DNA from: Vairimorpha necatrix
Taxonomy: Eukaryota
Length of the DNA stretch: 64,000 nt
Direction: 5' to 3'
Assembly (NCBI GenBank): GCA_036630325.1
Contig: CP142732.1
Location: forward strand, 1 to 64,000
Shown here: positions 25,828 to 63,341 of the stretch, in pieces
How the letters are laid out: the number at the start of each line of letters is the position of its first letter
Position numbering within the stretch: position 1 is the stretch's first letter
Program-made: the position numbers and the translations under genes
Notes under the pieces: generated by a model
What the model was told of the DNA's origin: nothing
Seen by the model: only the letters and a program-made list of their open reading frames with translations
The model's database searches: none

Positions 25828-25877
25828 ATGCATTTTCAGCTGTTCTTATTTTTTTCATATTTTGCAAGATTTGTCTT

Positions 25878-25913
<36 letters not shown>

Positions 25914-27933: not shown

Positions 27934-27965
27934 ACATAATTGAAAATTAACTCAATAAATCTTTT

Positions 27966-27971
<6 letters not shown>
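25911..27971 (+). mobile_element. 5'-truncated RLE-type (R4/Dong-like) non-LTR retrotransposon inserted in (TA)n
   Basis: (TA)n on both sides (25880-25910 and 27972-27999); AATAAA at 27954; RT + CCHC + restriction-like endonuclease ORF. Confidence 0.92.
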
Positions 27972-31825: not shown

Positions 31826-32760
31826 CTGTTATAAAACCATATATTAAATCTTATTTTATATTTTTCATTTTAGTTTATTTATGATAATAAGCTTGATCAT
31901 TTATAAAATATTGAATTGTGACTAATGATATCAAATTAAACATATTAGAAGGTTCTTTTTTTCTAAATGATTTGATTCTTTAATAGTTTTATTGATAACT
32001 ATTATTAAATTATTAAAATTTGTATATTTTAATATTTTCGTATGACTGAAATTTTATAATAAAAAAATATTAATTTTTATATTTAAATAACTTTTAAATT
32101 TTAAATAAACTCATCTTATAAAGAAGAAAACTTTAATCTAAAAAAATTGCTTTTAATTCTAGATAATTTTCTAATAATTATTAATTGTAAACCTTTTTGT
32201 ATAAACATCATTTTTTGACTTTGAGAAATTATGCCTATAGTATGAAGTTCTAAATGCTAAATTTTTAAACAATTTGCGATAAGTTTTCTTTTAAAATTTA
32301 TTTTGATATATTACAAATTTTTTATGAAATTGATAGATCTTTTAGATCTTAGTATATGACTCAATGGGACGAAAAACAAAACAAATATTATTCTTGTCAT
32401 GTGTTGGATAAAAAATTACTAATTTATTTTTCTTTTTTAAATGTTTTCAAATAACATTTTATGTTCGAATAAAAGTGCGTAATTATAAAATTAAAAATTG
32501 ATTTGCCGAAAAATTGTCATAGTATATTTTACTGTATGATTATACTTACTATTTGTTTCTTTCTATTCTTTATTAGGCTTCTCTAGATAAATTTTTGATT
32601 AATGTTAAAGAGTCGATATATAGTCTATTTAAAGAATATAGAAAAGGTATATAATGCTTTCGGTGCAACATATTCTAATTTTATGGCTAGAATTCAAAAA
32701 TAAATTAAAGTTTAGTTTTTCTCTTTTTCAAACTTTACATTTTTTAATATAACAGATACA

Positions 32761-32807
32761 CCTACCTAACCTACTACCTACCCTACCTACCTACCTAACC
32801 TAACTAA
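32761..32807 (-). repeat. Interstitial telomeric remnant (CCTA/CCTAA)
   Basis: cctacctaacctactacctaccctacctacctacctaacctaactaa directly before copy B, in the same orientation as the terminal tract. Confidence 0.92.
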
Positions 32808-32970
32808 CACGTAAGCTTTTAGCCCTCAAAACTTCCTCAATCTTTTGTTTAAAAAATTTATCAGTTAAATCAATATGTAACTAAAATAAATAAAAAAAGA
32901 AAATTTTTAATAAAAATTTATCTAACTATTTTTTTTATTCAATTATTTTTTTTTCAGATTAATGATTATA

Positions 32971-35900
32971 TGTTATACATTTATTTAATAGGAAAGTTCA
33001 ACCCTAACATTTCTCCTTCAAACGGATAGTCTCAGGTTACAAGCTTCTAATTTATCATTTTTATAAAATTATAGGTCATAATGTCTTTCTTAATGTATCT
33101 TCCGCTATCAGTCCTTACAAAATAAGAATCATTCTATAGTTTCCGAATATTTTACCGACACTTGTAAATCTTCCTTTTGTACTTTTCATCTATTTACCCA
33201 AGTTTTTTATCTTGCGATTCTCACAGCCTGATCTACTTCAAATTTTTCTCTATGCTTTTGTTTAAACTTACTTGCATACACATTCTTTTTATTGTTTTCA
33301 ATTAAGACTTCTTTTCCTTGTTCTTTCCATGCTTCCATTGGTGTACATTTAATCGCTGTGTGTAGAGTGTTATTATAGGTTCTTGCAGCTTGTTCTAGTT
33401 TTTCCTCTGGGTTTCCTTTTTTTTTTGATCATCGGTTCCCTTATTGTTCAAATACATCGTTCTATTCTCCAATTAACCCTATGAGCTTCTAAATATACTT
33501 TCCATTGCATTATTCCATTTTCTTTACACCAAGTTACAAACTTCTGACTGACAAATTCCTTGCCGTTATCCGAAATATTCATCTAGGCATCCATCTTCAT
33601 TTATCCATTATCCTAAAATTTTCGTAATAACATCATTTCCCTTATTTTCCATCTTTGCGCCCCATACTCTTCTCGTAAAGGAGTCAGTCCCTAATAGCAC
33701 GTATATTTTTTTCCTCAATATCCATTACGTCTAAGCCTACTTTTTCTAATTTCTTAAATGTTGTAACAAATTTGGAACCTCCGGTCGTTTTATGTTATTA
33801 ATGCTACATACTTCACAATTTTTTAGCGTTGTGGTTATCTGGTCCAATACCTTGCCAGTACAGTCTTTGTTTTTCCTTATAATAAGTTTTTATTCACTCC
33901 TCGATGATTTAATTCCTCATGAACTCTGGAATTACTGTCTATTGTTAGTTCGTTGTGTAGTAGTTTTTTAATTTCTCCTGTTGAGAACTTCAAATAGTTT
34001 TTACCTTCTATTTTAACCATGCGCTTTATTTCTTTCCCTTTCATCTGTTTTTAAGTCCGTTTCTATCTTTCGCTGCTTTTTTTTATCACTTTGTTATTTT
34101 TAAATTGTCTACTAAGAGCATCTACATCCGTCATCCATTCTCCTTTTACATATTCAATAGTAAAATCGAACTCTTGTATGTTTTTTATCCATCTATTATT
34201 TTTGTTAGTTTTGCGAAACGGTTTGTTTCTAATCTCAGCAAGTTCTTTATGATTTGTCATTTAATGAAATTTGCTTCTCTCAAATCGGATTCGAATTTCT
34301 TTATTCCAAATAACACTGTCAACATCACTTTTTCATTAATCATATACCTTTTTTCTGTTGCTGTTAACATTTTTGATGCCCATTGTATCTGATTCCACCT
34401 TCCTTCTTTGTCTTCTTGCAATAGTATAGCTCAAGTTCCCGTATCGTATGCATCTGTCCTTACTCTACACATTTTTTTACTATCTACCATTTTTAATTTT
34501 TTCACACCTTTAAACCCTCTTTGATATCCATAAGAGCTCTTTCCATATCTTCGGACCATTCCCATTTAACATCTTTTTTTAGTGCTTCTGTAAGAAGCGC
34601 TGACAGATAAGCATAATGGGGAATAAAATCTCTTAACCAGCCTGCACGTCCTCAAATCTCTTAAGCTCTTTCATCTTGTTAGGCCTTCTGTATTCTAATG
34701 TCTCTTGCTTTTAAATTTCATTTGGTGTAATGTCTTCTACGTTAATTGTTACTCCAAGTAGTTTTACTTCTCCTTTATATTGTATTTTTTTTAAGTTTTT
34801 TTTTAATCCACATTCGTTAAATAATCGAATTACTTGTTTTAATAAATTTTCGTGTATATTACTATCTCTTGCATGAATAATAATAATATCATCCATGTAC
34901 ACCTCAACACTCTTGCCTCTAAACTTATCTAAAACTCCGTTCATCACTTTTTACATAAAATAGGAAGATTTTTAAATCCCATTACCATGCTATTCTTTTT
35001 GTAAAGTCTAACATTTATCTCAAAAGCTTTCTTATGCTTTTGAGCTTTCTTAATTTCTATATGATAGAATCCTTCCTTTAGTTCTATAACCATAAATACA
35101 ATAGAACCTTATGTTGCCCTAATAATGTCTCTAATCAATGGCAATTCATACGGATCTTTTTGCACCAGTTCGTTTAAAGCCATCAAATTGCTTCTAAATT
35201 GTACTTCACCATTTAGTTTTTCTATAGTACTTATTGGGCTTCTCCATTCGCTCTTTGTCCTTCTGAAAATACCTCAACTTTCTTTTAAATTAATATACTT
35301 TTCTAACTTTTCTCGAATTATAAGAAATATTTTGTCTTTTTATAACTACTTTCACTCCTTGTTTTGTTTTGATAGAATATTTTCCCCCTGTTAAGTATTT
35401 TATTTACTCTTCGTCATTTCCTAATACTTCTGGAAATTTTCCTCTCAATTCTTCTAATTTATTAATATTTACCCCTTTTATCTTGTTTCGTTTTTTTTAC
35501 ATAAAAACTGTTTCTTGAGTTCTCTCTTTCTACCTCCACTGGTAGTCTCAATTTAAAATCATTTCCTTTTAATATTTTCATTTTACTATTATCACGAATG
35601 CCAAATCATTTAACACTTTTATATTCATTATTCTCTTCCTGTCTTCCTTTACGCTCCATACAACCTCTAGCTATATGTATAATTCTTCCACATATAAAAC
35701 AATGGTTTTCTTCTCGTCTTTGATATTGAAAGTTTCTTCCCGGCACTGCTACAGTCCTAGTCAGTTATTCTTTAATCTTCTTTTTAATTTTTCTTTCATA
35801 ACCTCTACCATATCTTCGAGTTCTCTACTCCTTAATTTTTACTTGTTCTTATTCTCTTTCTTTTCAACAACTAATTTATCAATTTCATCAATAATATCAT

Positions 35901-36146
35901 TCCAATTAATCATATTGATCAAATTTTTATCAATAATAAAATCCTGAAGTTCAGGAACTTACTTGTTTTATCGACTGCTTTGTTGTCACATCTTTTACAT
36001 CTTTCTTATTCTGATGATTGCTTCAACTCTCTTGGGCTTCTTTTAGTAATTTTCTCTTCTCTTAAACACAGGTCTCACTTGTTACCCTTTCATCTTTTGT
36101 GTTTGCCATGTTATACATTTATTTAATAGGAGGTTCAACTTTAACA
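32971..36146 (-). mobile_element. Decayed family-1 Gypsy with 38-39 bp LTRs, copy B
   Basis: LTRs at 32971-33009 and 36109-36146; TSD ttata at 32966-32970 and 36147-36151; VYMDD in ORF 34711-34947; CCHC knuckle at 35701-35660. Confidence 0.9.
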
Positions 36147-39100
36147 TTATAATTAAAACACAAAGTATTTTTGGTGTAATTCTGCGAATAAATTTATGTA
36201 AAAATATATTGTAAAAGTATTGAATCATGTCTTTATTTTGTAATATATTATTGTAAAAAATGTCATTCTTGTGTTTTGACATATTTCTTACTGGAAATAT
36301 TCGTATTATAATAGAAAAAAAATATTTTAGGGATATTATACAAATAACTTAAATCTCGAAAGCTTACTAACGCATATATACAGACATAGGAGCTCATAAT
36401 CTTTAGGAAAGCTTATGATAAATACTTTGAATAATAAAATTGAATCATTTTTCCAAGAAAGTAAAATGACGTGATAATTTGGAAACATTAAGGACTAGAT
36501 TCCAGTGTTTGTATAAAAATACAATACGAATAACTAATTACAGTTGAATATTTCACTATAAAATTACGTGATATAAAAATAGATCAATGAAAGTAATTAA
36601 GATTTATGTATAAATTAATATGATTTAATTTATTTTTATAACATAAGAAATTATAGAAAAAAATTGTTTTTATGAATATTTTTATGAATATTTATATCTA
36701 CTTGGCTGCTGCATAAGGATGTGGCTTCTTATAATGTATAATCTTATTTATTTATGTATTTGCCCAACTGTTCAGGAAGTCTTTTATAATTACAAATATT
36801 ATTGTGTCTATTTTTTATGTTCTCTTTGGGATTCAATTTTTTATGGTAGAAAATATAATATTTCATGAATAAGAGGGAGTGAAACTGTTAGATAATTGAA
36901 AAAAAACTTCCTATATAAAATATATTTGATATGTGATCATAATGCCCTAGATATGTTTGTTTATACTTCTATATTTAGTTTTATAACCGTTGGATTTTTT
37001 CTTGTTTGATCTTCATATAATTTTAATTATGAAGAGAACTAGTTTGATATATTTGATAACCAGTTAATATTGATAAATTTTTGCAATTCAGATATGTTTT
37101 ATATTCAAATTATTGCTTAAAAAATTGCGAATAGTTTAAAAGTAACCTATCATTATCTATGAAAATGTTTTACATAATGTGTATATTAAAATGTATTTTT
37201 TATGATGTAACACTTTCATGGATTATTGAAAAATTCCAATTTTTAATTAAATCATTAGATTGATTTCATTCTACGAAAATCAAAATGTTTATTCCAAAAA
37301 AAATTTATAAAAATTTTTTTGTTAAAATATTTACAATTTAATTTATCAATTTATTTTTATAATTTTTTTATCAATTAATATTTAAATTAAATATAATTTA
37401 ATTATTATTAAAAATCGTCAACCGCATCTATGTTTAATATGTAATTGGGTTTATGCATTAAACTATTTTCTGTCATTATTAAAAATAAGAATTGTTTTTT
37501 TAATTTATATGCTCTTACATTATATTATCCTTAAATTTATATAAATATAAATTGATTAGTTGCATTGGGTTTTGTTTATACTTTTTATTAACCCTTATTA
37601 GCTCTTATTAATTTATATTTTTAAATTCTTCGGTTAGTGTAGTTTTTTTTCGTAAAAATACTAATTCTGTTTTATTTTGATTTTATTTTTATCATAATTT
37701 TAGTATAAATAATAAATACGTGGAATATATGATATTTACTAGAAAAATTCATATGAAGAAATACGAAATTCATTTCCAGCTTAGTTTTGTGTATAAATTT
37801 ACAATTTGTATAAATATTGATTATCTTATTATTCGAAATGTATTTATATTGTTTTCTGACCATTATTAGATTTATTTCTTAATTATTTATAATTTTTTTC
37901 ATTGAAATAATTTTTTGTAGTAAATTTTATAATATTTTTACAGATTATAACCAAAAATTTCAAAATACTGTTTTAATATAGGATAACAGAATGGAATGTT
38001 CGTTGTTGTGTTCCTCTATAGATGTTTATATTTTATTTTTGTCGTATGTCTTATGTTTCTTTGAGACTTTAAATTTTCATTATGAATTTTCATGATATTA
38101 TTTGGTTTATATATGCTACATTTTTATGATAATTTTAAAAACTTAAGTTAAGCATAAAAAAATGAGTTTTTAGATATGATGGACTTCCAAAGTTCCCTTG
38201 CGATAAATAGTATTAACTTTTTTATATAAGAACGATTTAAATCATTTATAAAACTTTATGAAATATTGATTGTAATTTAGTAACTTTAATTTACAATTTT
38301 CTAAAACCCTCCATGATATGGTTTCTTTTGAAATACAAATATATGAAAATCTTTAATAGATTATTTTAAATATTTTGTTAAATTTTTCGTTATTAAATCA
38401 TATGTTTCTCGTGTAGGTTGTATATGTCATCATGTTTAATATGTAGGTGTAATATATTGCATTTTAAATTTTCGATTGATATATTATTTTTTAAAAAAAA
38501 TTCGTTATATGTTCTAAAACTATTACTTTTTTCAATCAGTCGGATGTGTATTATTAAGAGAGAAATTTGAAAATATAAAATATAATTTAATGATCAAAAA
38601 ATATTTTTTTCGTTTTAGTGGTTGAGACTTCTGATTAAATAGTCGTGAAAATTTATTTGTATATAAATTTTCTTCTTTTTACTTATCTAAAATTATTTGA
38701 ACGTTTAGTTTGAATGTTTTTATTAACTATTCTAGAAAACATATATATTTTCAAAACGAGTTTTAGTCCAATACGTTTTTTTTTAAAAAAGTTATCCTAC
38801 TACTTTAAATATATTTTCTTTTAAAAATTATTTTTGTAATATTAACCTCAATTATCTTTATTGAAATTGCATTTCGAAATATATTAGTTTTTTCAAAGAT
38901 TTTTATTGGAATTATGTTTATTTTACTTGTTGATAAATCTTTGTGTATTATAAAATTTATATTGAAGTAAAAAATTTTCTTGACCTTAATATACTTAGAT
39001 TTAATCTAACGCATTTTATTGAACTATAAACACTATATAATATCAAAATTAAATTTAATTTTACATTAAAAATATTGACTATAACGGTTATATTCAAATT

Positions 39101-42100
39101 TTTTATTATTAAATTTTAAATATCTGATAATTATAAGACAAAGAACGAAATTTTTTACTTTATAAGAGTAATTTTTAAGTTTAGTCTTTTAACTTATAAT
39201 ATTTCGTTTTTTTGCTAAATAATAAAATTTTTTATTTTTTTATTTAAATATGTGTAAATGAGTTATTATATATTCTAAAATTTAATTTCTTTTGAATACT
39301 TTTAAAATTTTGAGACTAACGATATATAAATATTATTTAGGTGTTTTTTCAAAGATTCTTATTTGTTTCGAAGTATTACCATATTGCAAATATTTAATAT
39401 ATCCAATTCTAACTTTTAGACTTTTATTTTATTTTTTTTTGTAAATAATCTTAAAAACGTCCAGGTGAAATATTATATAGTATTATTATTGAAAAATATT
39501 TATCTTGTATTAACATGTCATAAGTAAGTTTTTAAATTTAAATTAGCTAGTGATAAACATTTTATTTTATGTTATTACTCTTAATATAAATTAAAATTAT
39601 TTTCTGCTTAAATATATAAATTTTGAACTTTATAGTTTGTTTGCTTGTAACTATTCTATACTAGATTTTACAATAAATATAGCATTTCATATTTAATTCT
39701 ATTGTTGTTATTAACTGTATTGGATTTATATGCATTTCTATTCGCTCCGTATTTTTGGTTTTATTTTTTTTAATAATGCGACGCCTTTTTCAAAATCTCG
39801 AAAACGTTTTATTCACAACAACCTTGTATTAAATTGTATGTGCGATTGTTTTATTTAATTATTCATAATTGAAAATTTACTTATTATTTCTTATTATATA
39901 ATAATATGGAAAATGTTTTCAAGTAGGTTTTCCCTAGGATTTTTAAAATCAATAACATAAATGTCGTTTCTAAGTAAAATTTTTTTTACCGTTACTGAAC
40001 GATTTATCAATGAATAGGTCTTATTTTATATTGTTAATTTAATATAATTTTCTTCAATTCTTCTAATTATAGATTAAATAAATGATTTCTAAATGAATAT
40101 ATAATTTTACGATATTGTTGATTGAATTTGGATTTTTTTTTCTTTCGTAAATGACCTCTTTTTAATATTTCGATTTTCATACTTAAATTTTGATCAAATT
40201 ATTATATAAAAATATTATACTTAACGGATTTAGAAAGTATATATATAACAAAAGAGCGATTATCAAATATTTAACCAATAGATTTTTGAATTGATTTGTT
40301 CTTATTTATTTGAAATTAATAATAAAATAATATATTTTTATAATTATGATACTAGTATGAATGATTTTACTTTTTAGAATTTTTTGGTCAAAATTTCTAA
40401 TTTTGTGTGGTCAATATGATTGTAAACAACAAAGTAATATTTGTGACATTTGTTTTTTACCAACTTCAATTTCAAAAGTCCACAATGTTTTATAACTGAA
40501 ACTTCTTTAGAATTCTATCAACCAAAAAAATGTAAAATACGAGGTTAATCGAAATTCTTTTAAAACTTTATACAATATTTGTTTTTCGTTTTTTTATCAT
40601 TAGTAATTATTATACTTAATAGTATACATATTGATCATATATAAATATAATATAGTTGATTTTTTTATATAATTTTCATTTATAAAATCCTCTGATGTGT
40701 TTTAGATAATTAATAAACTTCATTGTTTGTGTTAATTGTACTTAAATAATACTATACGCAATATTATGATTTATTTTTGTTTATCTTGGCGTAGATTTTA
40801 ATATAAAAGAAAATTATATTTCATAAAATATCTTGATCGTATATCTTTATTTTGAATTCTTATGTATTTATCTAGCAAAGCAATATGTATGGATCATATG
40901 TATATCTTTTCTATATAATCCCTTTACTAGCTAGTTATAATAAATGAATATTATTTGTATCACTTCTTACTCATTCTATTTTTAATCGTAAAAGTAATTC
41001 TATTTATTTGCTTTTGTACTTGTACCAAAAGAAATGAAAAGATCAAATTTAAAGTTTTTTGTTATTACCTATGTTGTAAATTTAGATAGATTGTAGAGTT
41101 CGTTTTAAATTTTATAAGATTTTTTTTTCTTTCAACCAATATGCTCCTTCTTATTTTTTCTTTATTTCTCTGTTCTTCATAGATAAAACTTTGCTACTTT
41201 TAAGTTAGAAGGCTAAGAAAAATTTGCATTAATAACTTTATGATTGTGTACTTACTTCATAGATATTCTTTGCCCTTCATATACAAAATTCTTTTTTATA
41301 TTTTATTTTTATTGTAATGATTTTTAGCCACGTAAGTTAAAGTTTAATTATTTTGGATAGATACACATAAAAAAAATTTGTTTTTTGTTGCATTATTTGT
41401 GTGTTGAAACGTTGTTGGTGAATATTTAACAGAGTAAACTTTGACAACTGTCCTTATTAAGTAATCATTAATACACACTTCTATGAAACCTTTGTATTTA
41501 GTTTATCAAGTTTTGGTTTTTTAACATTTATTTAAATATTTTAATGCATATACCAGAATTATTTTAGATAAATGTATAATCTTATTTCTTGTATATAAAT
41601 ACGTCCTAATTTATTAAACAATAGATTGTTAGACTAAATTATATGTCTTAAATAGTTTATGTATAGTATCAGACATTTCTTGTAATTAAAACATTCAATG
41701 ATTGTGTTTTAATTTCTTTTTGAAAGAATCTTATTTACTTGTTTGAAAAATATGTTTTTATCTTGAAAAAAGAAATAAATATATCGTTTAATTTACGTAT
41801 TGTGTCCAAAGGCGATTTAATATGTTAAACTTTACTTCAATTTTTAATTACATGTCGATTCTGCACATAATGCGTTTCATAATTATTTTATATGCAGCTA
41901 ATTATATACTTACGTACTCATACAAAAAAGACAAATAAATCTAAAATTCTTAAAATATTAATTATACAGATACATACGTTGGCAACCTCTAAAAAAAAAT
42001 GTACTAAATTATGCAAGAAATAGTTTTCGAAATATCAATTATAATATTTATTCAGATGTCTTGAAGCCTGAGACCTGCACTGACGATACGGCTTATAATT

Positions 42101-42487
42101 AAACAATGATTATTGGTACTGTCAAACATCTCAGAGTATTGTAAATAAACATAAGACATGTTTGACATTCACAAACTAAAAGTAAGACAAGTGCATGTCA
42201 CATGAAGTACTACTAATTCAGTAGAACTTCGGTTTCATGTTTGTTTGTTTACATCTCAAAGAGTTTGACAGTTAATCTAATTGACTATTTAAACGGAATT
42301 TACCCCTGACCTACAATTCCGATGAGCAGCAAAACAAACAAATAATATAAATCAATATGTTAGTTTAGACTCACCACTTCAACTTCGGATCAGGCCTCAT
42401 GCCGGATATAAGATGTGTGGATACTCCATTCAGAAAAAAAAATTATTAATTTGTCATATAATTATTTCTTGTTTTTATGTTTAATTC

Positions 42488-44465
42488 TGAGGTATTACCC
42501 GGGAGTTGGCCATTCCTCAGATAGCATTCTATAATGCTTCTCCCTGGTATTAAAGTTTTATTATAATTTAAGTTGTATTATTAAATCTGCCTCCTTGGGC
42601 TTTATCTTCCCTTTTCTGGGGATGCATTGATTGATACTGCTGATTTCTAGACTCCTCTGTTCTTCTTGACATATTTTGGTGGGGGTAAAAATAAAAAGAA
42701 AATATTTATATAAAAATAAATTCTAGAAAATTCATTTGGAGGAAAATATAATAATGTGGTAAATAATGCCACATACTACCTTCTCTAAAGGGTCAGCAAA
42801 TTAGAATACGGATTCCTCCGAAATCATCATATAGTTCTTTCCGCCGTTTCCTAGTAATAGCTGGGTAGGATATTTTAAACCTCAAATCAAGGTATGAGTT
42901 CAACTTATCATATTTGAGCTCTCAAATTCACCGTTTATTTCATATCTACATATGCTAAATGGCAACTGCTGCATTTTATTTTTGAGGCAATGTTTTCTGA
43001 AAGTTCCAAGATTTAATTTATTTTTATTCTAATAACTATCATATTTAGATGTTGCCAAATCTTTTACATGTGCATGGTTATCTTTAATTTTATCACGAGG
43101 CTTGCTTCTTTCTTTGTTATTTATTTTAATATTTCTTGAATATATATCATCTGATGGTATCGTATTCCCTGTCCTTTTCACAAAGTCAACTATATTAGTT
43201 AAGACTTTAGCTAGAAGATTGTCTATTTTTTATTCAAATTCCTTTTAATACAATTATCTATATTATTTATTCTTTCATTTATACTTTTCTGTTTATTGAT
43301 GATTTTATTTTCTTTTTGTTTCTGAATTAATAGGCAGTCGGTTTTTTATGTTTTATATCCAATTCATCGTAGGAATTTTTTTTTTATCATTAACGATTTT
43401 TCTTCTTTTTTTATTTCACTATCGTTGGCTTTTGGTTTTCTTAGACGACAATCTCGTGTATCATGTGATCTTGCTCGATGTATAGAGCACCATTATCACA
43501 TTTAAAGTATCTTCCTGTTTCTTCAGGTCTTTCATAAAGCTCTTTCTTAGATATAAATTGCGATATCGTGTCCCAACAGTTTCGCCTATAAAATAATCAT
43601 TTCTTCCAGATCTTGTGAATATTTTAATAGCTTGTTTGTTCCCTTGTTTTTCATTCCTGATTTTAAAACTTCAATGGCAGTTGATCTGCCTAATCCTCTC
43701 TCAAAAATCTGTTTCAATCTAACATCAAATTCCTTTTCGATAAGTTCATAGATATTCCGTATATTTCAATCATCGACTCTATTTTCTCGTAGTAATCTGC
43801 TATACTTCTATAATTTACCTGTTTTACAGTTTCCATCTCTGTTAATAATAAAGCTACATCATTTTTTGGATATCTAAATTCTAGTAGTTCTTTTTTTTTT
43901 TGTTTTTTGAAGCTTTTCTTATTTAGCTTATCTTTCACCTTAGAATCTTCAATCAAAGGTTAGTAGATGAGTCCCATCTGCTCATCAGTCCATTTAATGG
44001 CCGTTCCTAGCTCTTCAAACAGCTCGAGATGCTTTATGGTGCAGTCAAGTTTTACATTTTTCAATTTTTTCTTTAACCACTATTGTAGTTCCTTCTATGG
44101 TTTTATCAAATGTGGTATATGCTTCATCATCATTTTATTTCTCAGTATTATTACTTTTTTCTAATACTAATGAGCTCATTGAGGTATTACCCGGGAGTTG
44201 GCCGTTCCTCAGATAGCATTCTATAATGCTTCTGACGGGTATTAAAGTTTTATTATAATTTAAGTTGTATTATTAAATCTGCCTCCTTGGGCTTTATCTT
44301 CCCTTTTCTGGGGATGCAGTGATTGATACTGCTGATTTCTAGACTCCTCTGTTCTTCTTGACATATTTTGGTGGGGGTAAAAATAAAAAGAAAATATTTA
44401 TATAAAAATAAATTCTAGAAAATTCATTTGGAGGAAAATATAATAATGTGGTAAATAATACCACA
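42488..44465 (-). mobile_element. Internally deleted Gypsy LTR retrotransposon (family 3), no RT visible
   Basis: 286-bp LTRs at 42488-42773 and 44180-44465 (about 6 mismatches); TSD aattc at 42483-42487 and 44466-44470; PPT tagagaaggtagta; empty site near 12519-12523. Confidence 0.93.
43440..44364 (-). pseudogene. gag: gag of family-3 Gypsy, initiating inside the 5' LTR
   Basis: ccccc-accaaaat-ATG at 44364; YPKND...IADYYEKIE resembles YPKYE...IEEYYNEID of family 2; knuckle WCSIHRARSHDTRDC at ~43492-43448. Confidence 0.8.
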
Positions 44466-44589
44466 AATTCATATTTAATATAAAAAAAATATAGTTTAAT
44501 TTCAGAAAATAACATAATAAATATCATTGTTATAATATATATAAACAATCTTTACAAATATATACAACATAATTACTATTATTTTTCAC

Positions 44590-44800
44590 ATAAAAATGAA
44601 TTATAACGAGATATGCTAATGATGTTTTATATTCTAGTATATTCTGAATAGGTTCGCGTTAGCGTCTCCTGTTTGTGGGCAGCTTATCGACTCTTAGTCA
44701 TTTTCAAAGCGGAACCCAAACATCTCTTCGGTAGTCTATTGGAATGCTTAAGTTTGTCTTCTGTAATCATCTTGATGTACGCTTCTACTTTCTTAGAGTA
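44590..44800 (-). mobile_element. 3' fragment of RLE-type LINE (family 2), paralog of 12640-12850
   Basis: gttagcgtctcctgtttgt and gatgtacgcttctac are shared with 31600-31740. Confidence 0.75.
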
Positions 44801-45294
44801 TTTGATAGTTTAACCTATTTTTTATTTTATATAAAACAACAATATTAATATTATATTATATTTTTATTCAAATGTATATATATCTTCTTTATTTTACTCT
44901 ATAAACTAATTTATTTACTTTTTTATATATCATTTTTGTTTAATCATAATATATTTAAAAAAAAATTTTCAAATATTTTCATTAAATGAAGATAATTTCA
45001 GATTCCAAAATATATAAATTAAATATTACAAAAAGATTAGTTTCATTAAATATAATAGACAAGATTAATATGAACCTAGCATCGATAAAGAATATTAGAA
45101 TTCTACAACGCTTGATCTGATGATTTATCCTTCATTTAGTATTTATTGTAAGATAATCAGTTGTTTTAATTATCTTTATCATAAAAAAAAAGCAAAATTC
45201 AATACCGACAACCAAATTACTACACACATTCTTTTACATGGCCAACATTTTTTTCTAAATATATTTTTTTATACTAAACTCTAGATTTTTACTG

Positions 45295-45326
<32 letters not shown>

Positions 45327-48300
45327 ATTATTCTTTTTATTTATAGAATTTTATATCATATATACGTTTTTATGATATTTTTATTTATTAAACTCATTAA
45401 AATAATTCATTATAATAGAATGACAGTCTTTAATTTGGTATTAATATAATGTTCTAATTATTTCTAACTTTACATTTGAAATATTTTGTTCTACTGATTC
45501 ATCTTAATTATAACTGTAAACAGTTTATATGATAATTCAGAATTTATTTATTGCTAATATATTATCTAGAATTGTATGATAACTAATAAGGGCTTACAAA
45601 AACCGATATATAAGCTTTGTCAGCATGCTATTACAATGTTGTTATTCGAAAAAAATATACTATTATCATCATTTAGTGCATGCACAAACTTTCAAATTTT
45701 ATTATATGCTAAATTTCTTATCTAATAATTTCGCTTTCGATTGTATTGAATTTTTCGTAAAGTTAATGATCTTTCATTAGATAATATTTCTAGACATTCT
45801 CTTCTTTTCTCATAATATTACTCTCTTCCTAACTTTTATTTTTTTCCATGAAAGGTAAGAGAAAACTATTACTTAGAATTTTGTTAACAATGAATTTGTT
45901 CTCATACGTTTAGTGTATAGAGTTTATTGATAAATACCAATTTGAATTTGTATACAAACTACAGAAAGTACATATTGTACAATTTTTTCGTTTCAGAACA
46001 TATGTTTTTATCTATCTTTATATTACATCGTCAAGATCCACTGCTGATAAGAAACTAGGATTTAAATAAATTCTAAATTGCAAATCCATGTACATATTTA
46101 ACTTCCACGAATAACACTTATCATTACATGAATCTTTTACGCTACTTCTAACATTACTAAAATTCGATCCTGCTTTCTACGAACTTCTTTGACCACCAGT
46201 TATTCGAATTTTGGAAAATGGGGATATAGAATCGTATAAAAGAAAAAAAAGATGATCCTAGATAAATTCTTTAGACGTTAATTTGCCTTTAACAAATTTC
46301 ATTAAACACTGCTTACGTAATGTTTTTTTTAAAAAAAACTTGCCTTTTTTGAAAACACGGTCGATGTAAACATCAATTTTATTTCTAGTTGTAAGTGAAG
46401 TTGTTCATTTATAGTAAAGTTCCATTTTTTCATTTTTTAAAGCTCAGTGGAACATAAAACTTTTTTATGATTACCAAAAAGAACTTTGTCGTGGGGGGAA
46501 CAAAAAAGTTTTTTCAAAAAAAGTAAATCTTAATAGTCATTATGGAAAAGGCTTAGTTACAATGTTTTTTTCTAGCGACGTTAATCTTAAAGGTAAAGGA
46601 CTGGGCATGCATTTTATATCTCATAAATATTTTCAAAATGTTCTACATATTTAGTATCTACTACAAAAAATATAATTTTAAAATTAAATATTAAAAGCTA
46701 CTTTATACAAAATTACTTATTATTTTTTATACAATAATCATCTCTAATTTATATATAGAACTTTCGATTTCAGTTTATTAATACTCTATATGTAAATTTT
46801 CCTTATATTACACTATTGATTATAAAATTGTTTTAAAAAACGGTTTGTTATTTTGTTTTAATTTTAATATTTTTTTATCCACTCTATATGTATTGCTGAT
46901 GCAAGTTTTCTATTCAAATTTATTAACTTAAAAATTTCTACATAGATAGTTTTATACTATAATGCAAGTTGTTTTTGATTTTTACGAGTGTGTTAGATTT
47001 GCATCATTTTGATCCTTGTATTATATTTTTATTGTAGATACGTTTCTTGTCATTTCAAATAATAATTAAAAAATATAAATACTTGAATTATTATATTTAA
47101 CATGATGCATTTTTTAACTAAGAATTTATCTTATTTTTGATTTTACACAGATACATTGAATTAGGCGGCTTTTACTTATGTTCTTGAATATAACAAGTTG
47201 ATTTTATTAATTCGACTTGAATCGTACGTATTAAGCGCATTTCATCTAGGTTTTATAAGGTAATTTTCATATTTATTTCTTGTCAAAATTTTATCTACAA
47301 CTGATATTTATTAAAAGATTACATTTCTATTTAAAAATCAGAAATACTTTAGCAACACAAAATTCATAAAGTTTATCAAATGTGTAACCTTATGTTTTGT
47401 TATACGATAGAAGACTAGGTTAGGATTTACGGAACAAAAAAAACAATGACAGTATTACTAATTTAGTAATGATATATTTGATCGTTGGTTTTTATACGAG
47501 GAATGTAAACCACTGATTCATCTAAAATAAATATTGGACTGTTTCTTCAAAGAAATTTATTCTTTTATTTTTTAAATATTAATTTCTCGCATATATATAT
47601 TTTCGCCCTAAATATTATAAATGGCTTGAACTTAAAATCAAAATTGTTTTTGTAAGAAACGACATTTCGATAATCTCTCTTAAAAGGATTTGTTTTTCTG
47701 CCAAATTAAAATTGTGTACGGAATTTGGTTTTAGAAATTAGAAATAAGGAACAAACGAGTTAATTTGTTTCATGCATACTTTATTTTTTGTCTAATTATT
47801 TTTAAAGTAACTTATAATGTGAATATAATGTCCTTTTACTTTTTTTTATAGAACATAAATAAAATATGTGCATTTTTTATAAAAATTTAATTTGCAACCA
47901 AATCAATCCCAGAAAGATGCAGTCAAAATTTATGTCTGCAATTATTAAATCCATGTATAATATCTAATGTGAACAATAAATTTGATCTAGTGTACAGTTT
48001 TATAACTATTTTTAGATCTGTAATCTTTTTATTTGTTTTCTTTTCTATTATATACATCATCTTATCTGTTTGAATTATGTATGATTTAGATGGTCTAATT
48101 ATTTGCAAACAGAAAGTATATCTATCAAGGGGTGAAATTCAAAAATATACCAATTCAATTGTTTTTTAGATATGTTATATTTAAATGATCATTCACCCCA
48201 TCTTATGAAAAATATTTTCATCTCTGGAATATTCAAAAAATATAGTATCCCAAAATGAATTTTTTCCATTTTTAAGATTATATAATTTTACAATAAAATG

Positions 48301-51023
48301 TTTACGTAATGAAATCTAAACATATCAAATATTAAATTGCAAAATATATTACTCTATTGTATATATGTTGTAAAAAATGATTTTATTTATATTCAAATGC
48401 ACAAATAATTATAATATCGTGTTTCTGACTTTATATTTCCTTTATTTTTCAACTTTTGTTCATTTTACTATCTTAAATAACTGATTATTTGTCTTCTATT
48501 TTTGGTTTTGTAAGTCAAAATTACTATATCAGTCCTATAGAATAAAGTTAATAGTATATTCACACTGACTTTCTATTCTTAGAGGATAAATGAAACGTGA
48601 ATTTTATTTTTTAATTTTCTCTAATTTTGTTTTTAGATTTTAACTATTATATTGCCAAAGAGAACAATCATTTAATTGTTTACAATACTTAATTTTCATC
48701 GATTAGGTTCATTATAATAAATTGTTTATTCTTTTTACATATGAATATTTTTTCTTTATAAATTAATCGATATTATAATAACTCAGAAACAAACATTATT
48801 TCTTATTATATATCATTAAAAACGTTATTGTTGATTATGTAAAGTCTGTACGATTAAAATATTTGATGCAATTATTTCTGGGGTATTTCATTCTTTTATA
48901 CATATATACATCTGGTTGTTGCAATAAATATGAACTTATTACCAAGATTTTTATATCTTAGTATATTATGTATATTTTTATTAAGCACTTGCCATGTTTA
49001 TTATATCTACACATATCTTCGTAAAAGCTTATAAATTTTGCTGAGATTTTGAATTTTTAGTATCATATAATTTTTATTTCATTTTATATATAGACTTTGA
49101 GGTTGATTTACGCCCTAAAGAAGGAATATTGTTGTTTTCTTTAATGTGTTTTTTCAGCGCTTTTCGATCCTTAATGTTTAATCTTTCCTAGTCTTTTCCT
49201 AAAAGTGTCTTGTTTAAGTAAAATGCTAATGACTAATTGAAGATATTTAAAACACAAGAAACATTTGTTGAAAAAATCTTTATATGTCTTTATTACATAT
49301 ATTTAATGCTCATTTTGCCATTTAAAGTCAATCCTTGTTTTTGTCTTTCAATATACTTGGCAATAATAGCTATTCCTTTAGGGAGAGCACGTCTTAGTAT
49401 GCAAATGACTCGTAACACATAGATTATTCAATTTAGTAGTATTTATGGGAAATCTGTTCAAAATATAAATTTCTTAAATCATCTAGTACGGTTGTTAAGA
49501 TAAATAGCTCCAAAACAATGTATTTAACAGTGTTTGTTGAATAAACGATTAAACTTTATTATTTTTGTTTCTATATTATACATACTAACTTTACTTTGTT
49601 TGCAAGCGATAGATATAATTTTAATTTTTCAGTCGCAAAAAATATTAAATCTATTTTTGAAGTTTGGTACTTACAATACTGTTTATTCTGAATTTTAATA
49701 TCAGATTATTTTTGTCTTGTCAATATTATTATCTCTTCTTAAATATATTTACATATACAAATAAATCTACTCTTAATAATTAGTTAGTTGTTTAGAATGT
49801 CAAGAATAATTACTTTCAAGCCTTCATGATATAGCTAAGTTCTTTTGTAATGAAATATTTTGGGGTGATTATTTTCCTCAAATAATTATCATGATTTTCT
49901 TCATCATCTTATTACATTTGTATATATATTGTCAAGTTTGGAAAATCTAAAATTTAAATCACTTAAATTAGAAATTATTGCATTTTAGACTAATTATTTT
50001 TCCATAATTTTTTTTCTGTCTTATTGTATATATATATATATATGTATATAAAATTTTCCTTATTTTAAAAATGAAAATTTAAAAACTTTATATTAGAAAT
50101 TATTGCAAGTAAGACAAATATTTTTTCATGATTTTTATCAACTTCTTATTTTTTATAAATGTGTATAAATTCTTTTCAATAATGAAAAAAACAAATCAAA
50201 ATTATGTCATTTTAGATAATTTATTTTTTCATGATTTTATTCTTATTCTTGCTGTTTAAATAATTTAACTTGTCATCCTTGAATAATTAAAAATTTAAAA
50301 GTTCAAAAAACATAATTTTGACTTATAGCCTTTATTTAATTTAATATTTCGTATTCTTGGTGCGTAGGAGAGAAGATGAAATCTTATACTTGAACTCAAA
50401 AGCAATTGAGTTAAAAATCCAATTGATATAGGGTATTATTATTCACTTAACTTCTACCAAATACTTTCGCTGCACTATCTCCGACGTAACCATTTAGATT
50501 TGATGAGTTTATTTTTATATACAAGCCTCTAATCGCATCATTAAATCAAAAAATATATTAAAATGAAGATTTTAAAACCTCTGTATAGATTTATCGTTTT
50601 AATCTAGTGTCGATATTATATATATAAATCATCTAGATCTCAGATGGCTCTTCAACTACAAAGACACTAAAAGCAAACTTATTAAACTTCTTTGTCTTTA
50701 ATGAAATAATTGAACATATCTCCATCTTATACTATATCTTGTTTGTATAAAAACAAACTTCATAAATTTCTACATCAAGAGTGCCATAATTGGCTTTTAG
50801 GTCCCTATAGAATATACAGCTATGGTATTATGAAACACAGAAGGACAAATTATATGTAATAAGAATTTAAAGTGTGAATGTATTTAAGAAATTAATGATC
50901 AATTCATACAAGAGATACTTTTCAAAATATTTGTTTAGTCTATCAATTTTGAAATATTATATTTAGTGACGTCTATATGTCCGCCAGTAGATATCTTTAT
51001 ACTTAAAATAAATTTAAATTTTC

Positions 51024-51092
51024 TCTTACCGGGAATCTCACCTTGGACCTTCGAAATCCTAAATCAAGGTGCAACCATTCTGCCAAGCACGA
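51024..51092 (-). pseudogene. Degenerate tRNA(Pro, AGG)-like sequence or SINE head, copy B
   Basis: A box TGGCAGAATGG; anticodon loop TTAGGAT; B box mutated (GGTGAGATTCC). Confidence 0.5.
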
Positions 51093-51842
51093 TTATTTTA
51101 ATTTTTTGTTATCCTTTAAGAAAACCAATTATAGTTCAACTTTATTTATTTTTGTTTTTCTTTCTATGCATAAAGAAAAATTTCAAATTAGTCAGATTAA
51201 AAGATCATTAATCTGAATGAATCAAATAATAGAACAATTTACAATGTTAGTTTTATGCTTTCTTTTGGAAAATAAATTATATAAGATTTTCTTTGATCCA
51301 AATATACATTTCTATATATATATACATGTTATACTAAAAAATAGTAAACATTTTACACTGCAAAAACAAGTATATGTCCTATATTATATACAAAATACTT
51401 TCATATGTGACCGCACAATTTAAGATTTACTGGCATCGTATTTTAATCTCTCTATTATATCTGGCAATTTTGTTATTATTATTTTCTATACCTCTAAAGT
51501 AAATTTTTTTAAATAATTTTTTCAACAAGTTAAAACTGTCATTTGTAAGAATATGTTTAATATGTATTTGATCTGCTACAACTATATATGAACTACATTC
51601 TTTTAAGAATTTAAACTAAAAAATAATAAAAACATATTTATGTGATTTAACTAATATTCTTTATTGAGATTTTGTTTTTCTTAGATACTGTGATGTACAT
51701 TACTACAACACATGGACAGATGTCTAAAATATGTCAACCGTTTCGGATGGCATGTCAAGTTGGGTCACACAATCAAACGAAAGTTGCATGGTCGTTACTA
51801 CATTCGTAAGTACGCCAATGTTTGTGTTTAGTGTTGACAACA

Positions 51843-52170
51843 TATAAAAGATTTATTGAGTTAATTTATCATTAAAGTTAGATTGGCACAGTTTCCCCCT
51901 GTATCGCTCACTAGATTCGGCTCTTTATAGACTTTGGTTTCTGTGGAATTATTTATGTTTTTCAACTCCAAATTTTGAGCTTCATTCTCGTATACCGACA
52001 TCGCTTGTTCAACAGTCGCCATATTCGCTAGTGCGCTTAAAGCTCTAACCACTTCTTCTAATGCATAATCTTTATCGTATCTTGTTCGTCGTTCCAAAGA
52101 GATGTTTCTCTGGAGTTTTCTTCATCACATTAGACTGGATGTATGCTTCCAGAAATGTTTAGATTTCTGC
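51843..52170 (-). mobile_element. 3' fragment of family-1 LINE, copy B
   Basis: ORF 51861-52097 matches the C-terminus of the 701-aa ORF. Confidence 0.9.
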
Positions 52171-52559
52171 AGAATGTAAATAAGATTTTAAAATATTAAT
52201 ATATATGTACACAATAATAATATAGTTTAGAAATAATAGATTCCTGAACTTTTAAAATTTTACAACTGTAACTTTTATTAAGGAAAAAATATTTTATTTT
52301 GACATTACGATTGATTTTTAGTAAAAATTTAATTAAATTTTGAATTTCTTCAAAAATGTCAGCAGAAAATAAAAAATTTAAAGGCCGTATTGTTTTTCAA
52401 AAAATACCATCTGGTCATCTTTTTAATTGAGTTGTTACTCTGTAGACAAAGAAAAATTAGCAATAAATTTCAAAACAAGATCGTCGAATAAAGAGTAATT
52501 AACATTTTTGTTTAGTTTTTGATTGTATATTTTTTAATTAATTTATAAAGTAAAATTTG

Positions 52560-53633
52560 GACTAAAATCAGCTTTAGTGTAAAAAAAATGGGGGGTCAAA
52601 ATTTTTAAAAAATTGCCCCTTTTTTTAAAAAACGAAGGGAAGAGAAAACTTCAGAAAAAAAATAAAATATAATTAAGATATAAAAATGAATGAAAATTAA
52701 CTTTAAAATAAATAAAATATATCAAAAACATAATTTTAATAATGCTTTGAAGATGTCTTCGCTCTCATTTCTTTTAATCATATATAGAACTAAATATATT
52801 TCAGCAAATTCATATGTTCTACACCTATTGGGTATAGAGGCTTTTAAAAACCTCCAATTTCCTTCGATGATGTTTGTATGGACACCTGTTTCATTATCTC
52901 TAAATGTTTGACTGTGATTTACAGTTCTATGGTCCGCGTAATGGCTTTTTAACGTTATATAGGCCTTCCACATATCGGAATGAATGATAGATTTCAAATT
53001 TACATGCTTAAATAAGATCGGCAGCAATGTATCCTTGTTTCTTTTATTGATTATGACAAATATTATTTTCTTTTCTGTTGTTCTTTCTACCATCCCAAAA
53101 CACCAAAATTCTTTAACTAATTTTCCCCTGTGGTATTTATTCTTACCTATTTTACTTTCGTCGATCTCCACTATGATATTTTCGCCTCCTATTTGTTTTG
53201 TTTTATTTATATATTTTTCATAAATTTTTAATTTATATAATTTCTCAAGTGTAGCACTTACATTTTGCATATTACAGTCCAAAATTTTAGAAATATGCGC
53301 CATTTTAAGTCCCATTGTTCATAGATTAACAATTTTCAGCATAAGAATATGATCTATCTTACTATTTGAAAATAGGTTATTATTCCAAATTGAAAATCTT
53401 TGGCCGCATTTGGGAAATTTACATCTCAAATAAAATGTTTCGTTAGATACTATAGATGTATCCCAGCCACAAATTGAACATTTCTGTTTATATTTCTTTC
53501 TTAGCAGATGTTCATAAAAATCTTCAATTTCTTCTTTACTCAGCATTCCCTTCGTTTTTTAAAAAAAAGGGGCAATTTTTTAAAAATTTTGACCCCCCCC
53601 CCCATTTTTTTTACACTAAAGCTGATTTTAGCC
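52560..53633 (-). mobile_element. Merlin DNA transposon 2
   Basis: ~80-bp TIRs (52560-~52641 and ~53547-53633); 8-bp TSD aaaatttg at 52552-52559 and 53634-53641; empty site at 20562-20569. Confidence 0.95.
52722..53546 (-). pseudogene. Merlin transposase with a single in-frame TGA at 53321-53319
   Basis: Both ORFs are in one frame (CTA TGA ACA ATG). CSIC/CKFPKC zinc finger; VEIDES, IHSDMWKAY, TVNHS and HTNIIEGNW motifs. Confidence 0.92.
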
Positions 53634-58293: not shown

Positions 58294-58992
58294 TGTCACA
58301 GTTCGGAGCGGACGCCAGGGGTAAAAAATTAAAAAAAATCTCTTCAGTGAGGATCGAACCAAAAAATAAGAACAAATAAATGTTCGTCTTAAATGATAAA
58401 CAAAGTTTTGTCTCGATTTTTTTACGGGTAAATTTTTGCTTTTTTTTTTAATAATGGGAGGGAATATTGAAAAAAAGGAGAAAAATAAAATAAACAAAAT
58501 TTTTAGTACTTTATTCATTACCAAGCAACCTTAGATCTCTAGTACTTATTTCTTCATTATAATATCATTATCACTTCTTTGCATAATTTTACTTTATTAA
58601 ATTGTATTATGTCTATTACAATACCAGTCTGTAAAAAGACAAAAACTTCTTGTCTTTCATTGTTATTCAATTTTATTTTCATGCCCTTAAAATTAAAGAA
58701 ATTTTAAATACAAATTACAAATAAACATCAATTTTTTTTAAATTTTTTACCCTTCTCAAGTAAGCATTTTCCCTTGCGTCCGCTCCGAACGGGTATTTTT
58801 TTTTTTATTTTTTACCCTTTTCAACTAAGCATTTTCCCTGGCGTCCGCTCCGAACGGGTATTTTTTTTTTAAATTTTTACCCTTTTCAACTAAGCATTTT
58901 CCCTGGCGGTCGCTCCGAGCGGGTAATTTTTTTTTAAATTTTTACCCTTTTCAACTAAGCATTTTCCCTGGCGGTCGCTCCGAACAGTGACA
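58294..58992. mobile_element. Non-autonomous TIR element with TGT...ACA ends and 5-bp TSD (Ginger-like)
   Basis: TIR tgtcacagttcggagcggacgccaggg / ccctggcggtcgctccgaacagtgaca; TSD ataat at 58289-58293 and 58993-58997; no transposase ORF. Confidence 0.85.
58741..58985. repeat. Four 65-bp subterminal tandem repeats containing the TIR core
   Basis: tacccttttcaactaagcattttccctggcgtccgctccgaac at 58748, 58813, 58878 and 58943. Confidence 0.92.
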
Positions 58993-59279
58993 ATAATTTA
59001 TTAGCATAGATCATAAAATGCTTCTCTTTTAAATTAGTGTGGTATTTCTCAGCGGGACCTTCCCCGTACTGAGAAAACTCTCTACTATATTTGTTATAGT
59101 GTTTTGATTATATTTAATATAATTTTTACTGTGGTTAATATATTTATTGTTATCATGGTTCTTGTTCATTCTCTCTGAAATACTTGCCCCTAAACAAATT
59201 ATTTTTATTTATACAAAAAATAATTCTAGAAAATTCGTTGAGATTTTTGACATCTCAACAATTCAAAAATCCCATGTGG

Positions 59280-60233
59280 TTAATACCACATACTACCCTC
59301 TCTAACCAACTTAACATTTTTGACGTGAGTCCATCCATAATCATCTGATAGTTTGATCCAAAATCCCTTTGCTCCAACTTTAATCACTTTTTGTATTTGC
59401 GGTTTAAATGGGGGTTCTAATTTTCGGGCTCTAAAATTTCGCTTATAAACCAAGTCTCCAACATTAATTTTTTTCTTAAATTTTTTCTTTTCATATATTA
59501 TTTTTCTTGGTTCATATATTCCTAGGACGTCATAGAAATCATATCCTTTGGCTAAGGCTACTGGAGAAGCTTTTATTGTCCTGTTATAATTGACATTAAT
59601 ATTATTCTCAGTTTTATTCACTACTTGTTTTAAACTCTTTCCTTTGTTTATAGTTAGCGAAAACGATATGTATTTATTTAATCTTTCTGAAATGCCGTTT
59701 GATGATGGCGTGTATTCAGGTACTAATATTTGCTTTATTTTTTTATTTATAAGGTAGTTTCTTAATTCTTGGTTGTCGTACTGTTTGCCATTATCGGATA
59801 TAATGTACTTTGGGCTTTCAAATCTTTCAATCCATTCATCAATAGCTCCAATGACTTTCCTCGCATTAACTTTTTCAAACACGTATAAATTCGTAAATCT
59901 CGTACATACGTCTGTTATGGACAGTATGTATCCTGTCTCTCCTAAAAAATCCGACTTATAATCTTTAACATTAAATGGACCATATATGTCCGTTGAAATT
60001 CGTTCAAATGCTTTCCTACTTTCGATGTTATTATTTTTGTCTATTTTATAATTTTTTATCTTTACTCTAGTACATGTTGTGCAATTTTTAACAACTTCAT
60101 GTATTTTCTTAACAATATTTTTTATATATAAATAGTTCTTTATATTATAATACATACAGGTAATTCCTCTATGTCCTCCCAACTCATGTATTGTTTTTAA
60201 AAGTTCAACAGATTTGTTATCGTCTATAATCAT
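59280..60233 (-). CDS. Integrase (frameshifted relative to RT/RH), ending inside the 3' LTR
   Basis: HELGGH...CTTC; STDIYGP, ISDNGKQY and NGISERLN (DDE triad). Confidence 0.95.
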   Translation of the reverse strand: MIIDDNKSVELLKTIHELGGHRGITCMYYNIKNYLYIKNIVKKIHEVVKNCTTCTRVKIKNYKIDKNNNIESRKAFERISTDIYGPFNVKDYKSDFLGETGYILSITDVCTRFTNLYVFEKVNARKVIGAIDEWIERFESPKYIISDNGKQYDNQELRNYLINKKIKQILVPEYTPSSNGISERLNKYISFSLTINKGKSLKQVVNKTENNINVNYNRTIKASPVALAKGYDFYDVLGIYEPRKIIYEKKKFKKKINVGDLVYKRNFRARKLEPPFKPQIQKVIKVGAKGFWIKLSDDYGWTHVKNVKLVREGSMWY

Positions 60234-63064: not shown

Positions 63065-63341
63065 TCTCTCTGAAATACTTGCCCCTAAACAAATTATTTT
63101 TATTTATACAAAAAATAATTCTAGAAAATTCGTTGAGATTTTTGACATCTCAACAATTCAAAAATCCCATGTGGTTAATACCACAATTAGTTTCATTTTA
63201 AAAAAAAATTTCCCTCTGTGGTTAATACTCAATCCTCTTAAGATGAATTAAGTCTCTTTGTGACCTCCCGTAGTTATAAGTGTTATTGTTCTTCACATTA
63301 ATCTTTTATGTGGGTATATAAAAAAAGAAAAATCGGTATAT

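Follow-up and report, generated by a model that had tools for sequence, protein, structure and literature searches.

A gag-only Ty3/gypsy derivative in a microsporidian subtelomeric duplication and the palindrome at its primer position

How can a long terminal repeat (LTR) retrotransposon that lacks both its enzymes and a recognisable binding site for a transfer RNA (tRNA) primer have come to be inserted in a chromosome? The question is raised by an element, here called e1, at positions 42488-44465 on the minus strand of the first 64,000 nucleotides of contig CP142732.1 of Vairimorpha necatrix (assembly GCA_036630325.1, forward strand), a 64-kb stretch that we refer to as the window. A neighbouring element, e2, which bears a reverse transcriptase (RT) and lies at 59038-63185 on the same minus strand, serves for comparison. 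Taken as a whole, the evidence tips us slightly towards an explanation in which e1 is a gag-only element that was primed through a palindrome without a tRNA and copied by the proteins of a relative.

Structure and insertion of the gag-only element

e1 is a 1,978-bp non-autonomous, gag-only derivative of a microsporidian Ty3/gypsy LTR retrotransposon. It retains both LTRs, a gag that is broken, the tail of pol and a polypurine tract (PPT), and its protease (PR), RT, RNase H and most of its integrase (INT) are gone. The 3' LTR (42488-42773) and the 5' LTR (44180-44465), both on the minus strand, are 286 bp long, run from TG to CA whichever strand is read, and are 97.9% identical (blastn). They differ by six mismatches, at LTR positions 6, 147, 229, 231, 232 and 262, three of which are clustered, and by no indels. 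The PPT, TTAGAGAAGGTAGTA in the minus-strand reading, adjoins the 3' LTR at 42774-42788. Because of the coding remnants and this purine tract, e1 is read on the minus strand, and a perfect 12-nt palindrome at 44169-44180 (minus strand) therefore follows the 5' LTR, that is, it occupies the primer-binding position.

The window contains a segmental duplication of roughly 19-22 kb and 88-91% identity, of which copy A spans 2814-21902 and copy B 32765-54955. e1 lies in copy B between two directly read copies of AATTC, at 42483-42487 on its left and at 44466-44470 on its right. Copy A has no element at the corresponding position and a single AATTC, at 12519-12523, where the two blastn blocks that join the copies (A 2814-12523 with B 32765-42487, and A 12519-20569 with B 44466-52559) overlap by these five bases only. 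The 5-bp target-site duplication (TSD) and the empty site in copy A argue for insertion by an integrase-type reaction, and since the LTRs diverge by 2.1% against 9-12% for the flanks, the insertion is younger than the duplication. An integrase-type reaction thus inserted e1 into copy B of this subtelomeric duplication after the duplication arose. An earlier sequence-only reading, made by a model from the letters of the window, had described a 1978-bp element with intact TG..CA LTRs, a PPT, a TSD of 5 bp and, in copy A, an empty site, and alignment and inspection of the sequence bear out every part of that description.

The assignment to Ty3/gypsy rests on homology of the gag and of the pol tail to e2 and to microsporidian polyproteins. 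Direct TG..CA LTRs with a TSD in the 4-6 bp range and a PPT abutting the 3' LTR are both present in e1; the order PR-RT-RNase H-INT is absent from e1 and present in e2. In having no RT while its ends are intact and it has both a TSD and an empty site, e1 looks as a non-autonomous LTR element mobilised in trans would. The gag remnant of about 800 nt (43376-44168, minus strand) was delimited by three-frame translation, by tblastx to the e2 gag (nt 278-1030 of e1 with nt 245-997 of e2) and by tblastn of microsporidian polyproteins, the Gag part of which matches nt 233-1090. The homology ends directly past WCSIHRARSHDTRDC, a knuckle-like motif (WCSIH...C). From there to the PPT extends a degenerate 3' interior (42789-43375, minus strand) with no intact open reading frame (ORF) and no Pfam match, in which tblastx finds the final 26 or so pol codons (e1 nt 1624-1701 with e2 nt 3827-3904) and low-threshold tblastn with the C-termini of relatives finds weak traces of the integrase core (best E 0.003-0.2). 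None of the ten minus-strand ORFs of at least 40 amino acids (aa) in e1 gave a Pfam match to RT, protease, RNase H or integrase at E<=1. The sequence-only reading had found no recognisable RT, and this holds on both counts, the Pfam result being negative and the polyprotein homology stopping just past the zinc-knuckle region of gag.

The gag of e1 is dead. It carries at least four frameshifts and two in-frame stops, a minimum count, as the frame over nt 880-970 is uncertain and the similarity to e2 there is weak (E 0.43). An 81-aa ORF within it (43714-43959, minus strand) has no match in the protein library, either among longer proteins (105 candidates) or among those of similar length (1 candidate). 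A further lesion lies in the LTR itself. Behind a TATA-like box and a C-tract, the 5' LTR has an ATG that opens a 34-codon ORF, and this ORF is one base out of frame with a conserved peptide (..SIIECYLRNGQLPGNTS) for which the final ~90 nt of the LTR code and which runs on into the palindrome. The palindrome contains an ATG of its own in the gag frame (codons M-S-S-L).

The comparison element e2 is a 4,148-bp Ty3/gypsy element with PR-RT-RNase H-INT and the TSD ATTAG. Its Pfam matches, among them RT_RNaseH and Integrase_H2C2, stand in the gypsy domain order, and its 253-bp LTRs show one difference. The e2 gag ORF (62558-63103, 181 aa) starts inside the LTR and continues through the palindrome. 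Even so, e2 has at least three frame breaks, its gag being spread over two frames and its integrase not sharing the frame of RT-RNase H; either the copying of defective elements in trans is routine here, or there are indel errors in the assembly, against which the indel-free LTR pairs speak only partly. With e1 it shares the LTR tips (TGTGGTATTA / AATACC[T/A]CA), 14 of the 15 bases of the PPT (TTAGAGAGGGTAGTA in e2), and, in LTRs that are otherwise unlike, a 34-nt box of the GAATTTTCTAGAAT..TATAAATA type that is 88% identical (44366-44432 in e1; 63097-63137 in e2). The box, which has a C- or G-tract and the ATG of the LTR ORF downstream of it, is probably the promoter. Integrase, RNase H/RT and the host would read the tips, the PPT and the promoter-like box, respectively.

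The palindrome at the primer position

The palindrome of e1, AATGAGCTCATT, occurs once in the window, and its first minus-strand base is the last A of the 5' LTR. When up to one mismatch was allowed, 19 of 100 shuffles contained at least one match somewhere, and it is therefore the position of AATGAGCTCATT that counts, not its mere presence. e2 has a palindrome in the same register, ATTGAATTCAAT (62922-62933, minus strand), which likewise has the final A of the 5' LTR as its first base. Differences between the two 12-mers fall at positions 2, 6, 7 and 11, that is, in the pairs 2/11 and 6/7, and both changes are compensatory (p about 0.003). The sequence-only reading had called the e1 palindrome a second instance; the first is ATTGAATTCAAT, and the symmetry is kept at all four differing positions. 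A perfect 12-mer in a fixed register is expected by chance at about 1.2e-3 per element, and at 1.4e-6 for both. The window holds 163 perfect 12-nt palindromes, of which 11 contain G or C and lie outside the telomere array, AATGAGCTCATT and ATTGAATTCAAT among them; a three-mismatch match of the motif that joins LTR end and palindrome lies at 28381. The palindrome at the minus-strand primer position is thus a feature of the whole element lineage and not a product of chance.

Known kinds of primer site were sought at the same place. No TGG, as a tRNA-type primer-binding site (PBS) would have, occurs within 60 nt past the 5' LTR in e1 or e2, and the window contains no tRNA gene. A Tf1-type complement in the LTR reaches at best 5 nt in e1 and 7 nt in e2, both at shuffle level, with none of 8 nt or more; a downstream complement of the CHS type known from fungal copia elements reaches 5-6 nt at best, which 462 and 199 of 1000 shuffles equal. 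The local hairpins predicted around the palindrome differ between the two elements. What e1 and e2 share is the symmetry and the register of the palindrome and not its sequence, a pattern in keeping with a site that pairs with another copy of itself. Duplex energies point the same way: the homoduplexes were computed at -15.5 kcal/mol (e1) and -10.8 kcal/mol (e2), and the e1 x e2 heteroduplex at -4.2 kcal/mol. By this calculation the earlier suggestion that family-specific palindromes would favour the pairing of like genomes stands as physically plausible.

Public relatives were assessed by protein, the question being whether the tetrapeptide at the palindrome position can be encoded by a palindrome of at least 10 nt. 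A search with the 181-aa e2 gag ORF against 1.84 billion representatives gave 22 matches. Twenty of them (P0082-P0101) were aligned with seven N-termini hand-picked from a pol search (P0003, P0004, P0005, P0011, P0013, P0015 and P0017, of which P0015 and P0005 came up in both searches) and with e1 and e2. The alignment has 29 rows, 26 of which cover the position, and Nosema, Dictyocoela and Hamiltosporidium entries are among its public rows. A palindrome-compatible tetrapeptide is present in 17 of the 24 public rows (19 of 26 with e1 and e2), against a background of 4.6% (3730 of 81016 tetrapeptides in the same proteins). The compatible forms include LNSI, LNSK, LSSI, LISK, MNSL, MSSL, MISL, MNSF and MNSS; the seven incompatible rows are P0086, P0090, P0093, P0094, P0097, P0100 and P0101. 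In [L/M]-x-S rows, L as the first residue (codon T..) is accompanied in 12 of 12 cases by a fourth residue that a codon with initial A can encode, and M (codon A..) in 6 of 7 by one that a codon with initial T can encode (Fisher p = 2.6e-4). These figures overstate independence, as the rows are mutually related, and in them the first base of R and S is ambiguous.

Several compatible rows are long polyproteins with RT among their precomputed Pfam domains (P0004, P0005, P0011, P0013 and P0017), and another, P0095, is 1254 aa long. Autonomous relatives with a normal PBS, which the sequence-only reading had named as evidence that would count against it, were not seen, at the DNA level in e2 and at the protein level only in 17 of the 24 relatives. 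Retroelement proteins of the window have their nearest matches among microsporidian entries. The best public match to the e2 pol is 53% identical, and the named matches belong to Hamiltosporidium magnivora, Vairimorpha necatrix, Nosema granulosis and Dictyocoela muelleri. That best match, P0001 (1002 aa, from a contig of 3.2 kb), carries the label of a Lactobacillaceae metagenome-assembled genome, and is probably a microsporidian contig that was binned with bacteria.

With this in mind, a model of tRNA-free priming may be sketched. Two genomic RNAs would pair through the palindrome, and no tRNA would be used. A cut at the 3' edge of the palindrome would then leave a 3'-OH whose last base is paired with the A that ends U5 in the sister RNA, and extension from this end would yield minus-strand strong-stop DNA. 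The 12-nt primer would be copied in its turn into plus-strand strong-stop DNA, by which the site needed for the second jump would be regenerated, and the same palindrome duplex would link both RNAs as a dimer. e1 itself would be copied with Gag, RT and integrase from an autonomous relative, the LTR tips and the PPT being the signals recognised. In its boldest form, the model makes the palindrome a self-contained module that replaces the tRNA, in which dimerisation and priming are one act and the sequence serves as a 'mating type' that separates families; we put this forward tentatively and consider it rather doubtful. Were it true, any RNA with LTR tips, palindrome and PPT, such as that of e1, could use the proteins of a related family.

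Copying in trans or deletion in place

Was e1 already without enzymes when it was inserted? The frameshift between the ORF of the LTR ATG and the gag frame is present in both e1 LTRs, and this lesion is therefore older than the insertion. Since Gag-Pol is a single ORF in this clade, an LTR-borne frameshift means that the source element was probably unable to make its own proteins. The gag also bears at least six lesions beyond this frameshift, against no indels in the LTR pair. Contigs from public sequencing runs bear on the same question. In run X2, from another study, 42845-44192 is tiled, among the matches listed, by four contigs with 8-16 differences each (about 94-96% identity), and this tiling takes in the region where the enzymes are missing, including 42845-43439. 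Run X1 gave, among the matches listed, an exact 278-nt contig over gag, palindrome and LTR start (43913-44190) together with a ~84%-identical version of it, at least three contigs that run from the LTR end at 44467 into other flanks, and one contig that represents the empty site (joint 42484->44500). A joint 43201->43396 is, among the matches listed, common to X1 and X2. X1 also has a 34-nt loose end before 43386, near the point where gag homology stops, which might continue into a protease-bearing relative but whose length does not permit a call. Runs X3 and X4 contain next to nothing of the stretch, and no RNA run was listed as containing it. These contigs would fit a small family of deleted copies whose loci are not distinguishable. 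Read depths were not used as copy numbers, as related families are summed at 80% likeness and one bin reaches 69,132. On this indirect evidence we think it reasonably probable that e1 was mobilised in trans.

The main alternative is that e1 arrived full-length and self-sufficient and lost PR-RT-RNase H-INT later by an internal deletion in place, in which case it would have no bearing on cis requirements. We regard this as unlikely, though it deserves serious consideration. Such a history would suit the single e1 copy in the 64-kb window and an LTR divergence of 2.1%, which leaves time for a later loss; and e2, young as it is, also has frame breaks. It accords less well with the frameshift common to both LTRs, which suggests a source that was already defective, with the X2 contigs, which independently carry an RT-less interior among the matches listed, and with the joint shared by X1 and X2, which suggests, among the matches listed, several structural variants of the deleted form. 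That the short e1 is an assembly collapse of a full-length copy seems to us very improbable indeed: the region is repeat-rich and subtelomeric, as such an artefact would have it, but the LTR pair, the TSD and the empty site are coherent, and short contigs of the two public runs tile the same interior, among the matches listed. A different kind of objection concerns the palindrome. It could be a by-product of a conserved N-terminal Gag peptide (L/M-N/S-S-I/L), or a DNA site for a dimeric protein, with a tRNA fragment or something unseen as the primer. The gag frame does cross the palindrome in e2 and in public relatives, and the peptide is conserved across genera. A mere by-product, however, would not account for the choice of palindromic codons among many, including the G+C-rich AGC, for a symmetry that reaches flanking bases on both sides, or for first and fourth residues that co-vary as base pairing predicts; the perfect 12-mer of e1 beside its dead gag speaks the same way, a weak point given that only about 1% decay is expected. 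A tRNA primer, for its part, would need two tRNAs for the two different perfect palindromes, each with a loop-less palindromic stretch. We therefore hold this objection to be improbable.

Several points weigh against palindrome priming and copying in trans. The order of deletion before insertion is likely, yet it is one that we infer, and neither a second deleted copy nor a partner with the same LTR was retrieved from the protein and DNA collections searched. Exact scans of metagenome, viral and genome contigs for the 23-mer that joins LTR end and palindrome gave 0, 0 and 0 matches, as did a degenerate 23-mer over PPT and LTR start (0, 0 and 0), and among viral contigs queried with the e2 pol and the e1 gag no related locus was confirmed. 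The ATG inside the palindrome could start a shortened protein, and the LTR frameshift would then not be disabling. The contrast between the gag lesions and the indel-free LTR pair gives p = 0.12 in what is a weak test, and the divergence of the X2 contigs (48/1163) is not significantly higher than that between the LTRs (6/286; p = 0.12). In the contig comparison, reads were placed at 80% likeness, contigs of related families are mixed in, and both runs are rich in related LTR families. Frame breaks need not mean old age, as e2 has them despite 1/253 LTR differences, and assembly indels are possible. As to the palindrome, the cleavage and priming steps are proposals, priming by an internal tRNA fragment is possible, and it may be for the function of the protein that the L/M-N/S/I-S peptide is conserved.

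Mobilisation in trans would have consequences for cis requirements. If e1 moved after the loss of its enzymes, all cis signals for packaging, priming and integration lie within 1,978 bp, and it is as RNA or DNA, rather than by way of an encoded protein, that the palindrome acts; e1 would then be a natural minimal construct. The sequence-only reading went further and took LTR, palindrome and PPT to be sufficient. This is overstated and does not follow, because e1 keeps a 1.4-kb interior, of which gag makes up ~800 nt and the 3' part ~590 nt. A Ty3 mini-element supplied with proteins in trans is described as transposing, and as needing part of GAG and part of the 3' UTR to do so (PMC11381356).

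Known systems and the setting of the window

Deletion derivatives that are mobilised in trans are common in other organisms, and among non-autonomous LTR elements large retrotransposon derivatives (LARDs) are a further kind that moves in this way. Like e1, the mini-Ty3 (PMC11381356) and TRIMs (terminal-repeat retrotransposons in miniature; PMC6934838) are described as having kept LTRs, primer site and PPT, lost the enzymes and come to depend on a partner. Unlike them, e1 keeps a whole, if dead, gag and a pol tail, and is microsporidian. TRIMs of bivalves are also reported to lack a clear PBS (PMC6934838).

Starts of reverse transcription without a tRNA have been described for LTR elements in the form of the Tf1-type fold-back and of the unexplained CHS of fungal copia elements. 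The latter, in GalEa elements, is the nearest published parallel that we found. In the 2017 account of these elements (PMC5445492) there is no PBS, the palindrome counts the last A of the LTR, and no mechanism is given as accepted. The likeness to e1 and e2 extends from the missing tRNA-type PBS to the palindrome after the 5' LTR that includes its final A, and to variants that keep the symmetry. As described there, however, GalEa elements are copia elements of Pezizomycotina with a 10-nt palindrome that forms a hairpin with CHSeq2 12-41 bp downstream, whereas e1 and e2 are gypsy-type, with a 12-nt palindrome inside the gag frame and no downstream complement beyond chance. Tf1 and its sushi-group relatives share with e1 and e2 the gypsy type, a tRNA-free start and, if our model holds, the use of their own RNA as primer (PMC5445492, PMC6934838). 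In Tf1, as these accounts have it, the first nucleotides of the transcript are complementary to the PBS (about 11 nt), whereas the only partner found for the site in e1 and e2 is a second copy of itself. Retroviral dimer-initiation sites and PAL6 of Ty3 are likewise short 5' palindromes able to pair two genomes (PMC11381356); according to that source they sit in hairpin loops, besides a tRNA PBS, whereas in e1 and e2 the palindrome stands exactly where a PBS would be.

Neither the primer sites of microsporidian LTR elements nor non-autonomous ones were the subject of any paper that our text searches found, and the main text of Parisot et al. 2014 (PMC4202319) contains none of the terms PBS, primer, palindrom-, solo and non-autonomous. 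What e1 and e2 add is covariation between two families in a single window, covariation in public relatives at the level of protein, and a gag-only copy that occurs naturally. A co-varying perfect palindrome at the primer position of gypsy elements in microsporidia would be another tRNA-free case, and one that points to pairing with a sister RNA. In practical terms, LTR finders that require a tRNA PBS will miss or misfile such families.

The window itself begins with a telomeric array of mixed CCTAA/CCTA units (plus strand, 1-2852), beyond which the G+C content is 20-25%. A telomere-like tract of ~50 nt (32758-32806) stands at the start of copy B and is followed by the same subtelomeric sequence; copy B resembles a one-time chromosome end that has become internal. 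A degenerate gypsy remnant with traces of RT and of the integrase zinc finger lies on the minus strand at 3400-5700 and again at 33400-35300, and is older than the duplication because it is present in both copies. The PPT/LTR-start motif has matches here, at 3840-3856 and 33799-33815, that were rejected as LTR borders, for they fall inside the part of this old remnant that codes for the integrase zinc finger.

Other repeats and mobile sequences are found throughout the window. ORF fragments of an ISXO2/IS1595-type DDE transposase (PF12762) occur at 22381-22926 on the plus strand and at 52722-53318 on the minus strand (E 1.9e-11 and 7.5e-17). A 703-aa ORF lies between a 159-bp tandem repeat and (TA)n tracts (25161-25891, 25822-27933), and its only Pfam match is RVT_1, with the N-terminal part missing. 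Part of this region, 27636-27967, is found again in inverted orientation at 19854-20179 and at 51844-52168. A 65-bp tandem repeat, present in four to five copies (58667-58985), stands directly upstream of the flank of the e2 3' LTR.

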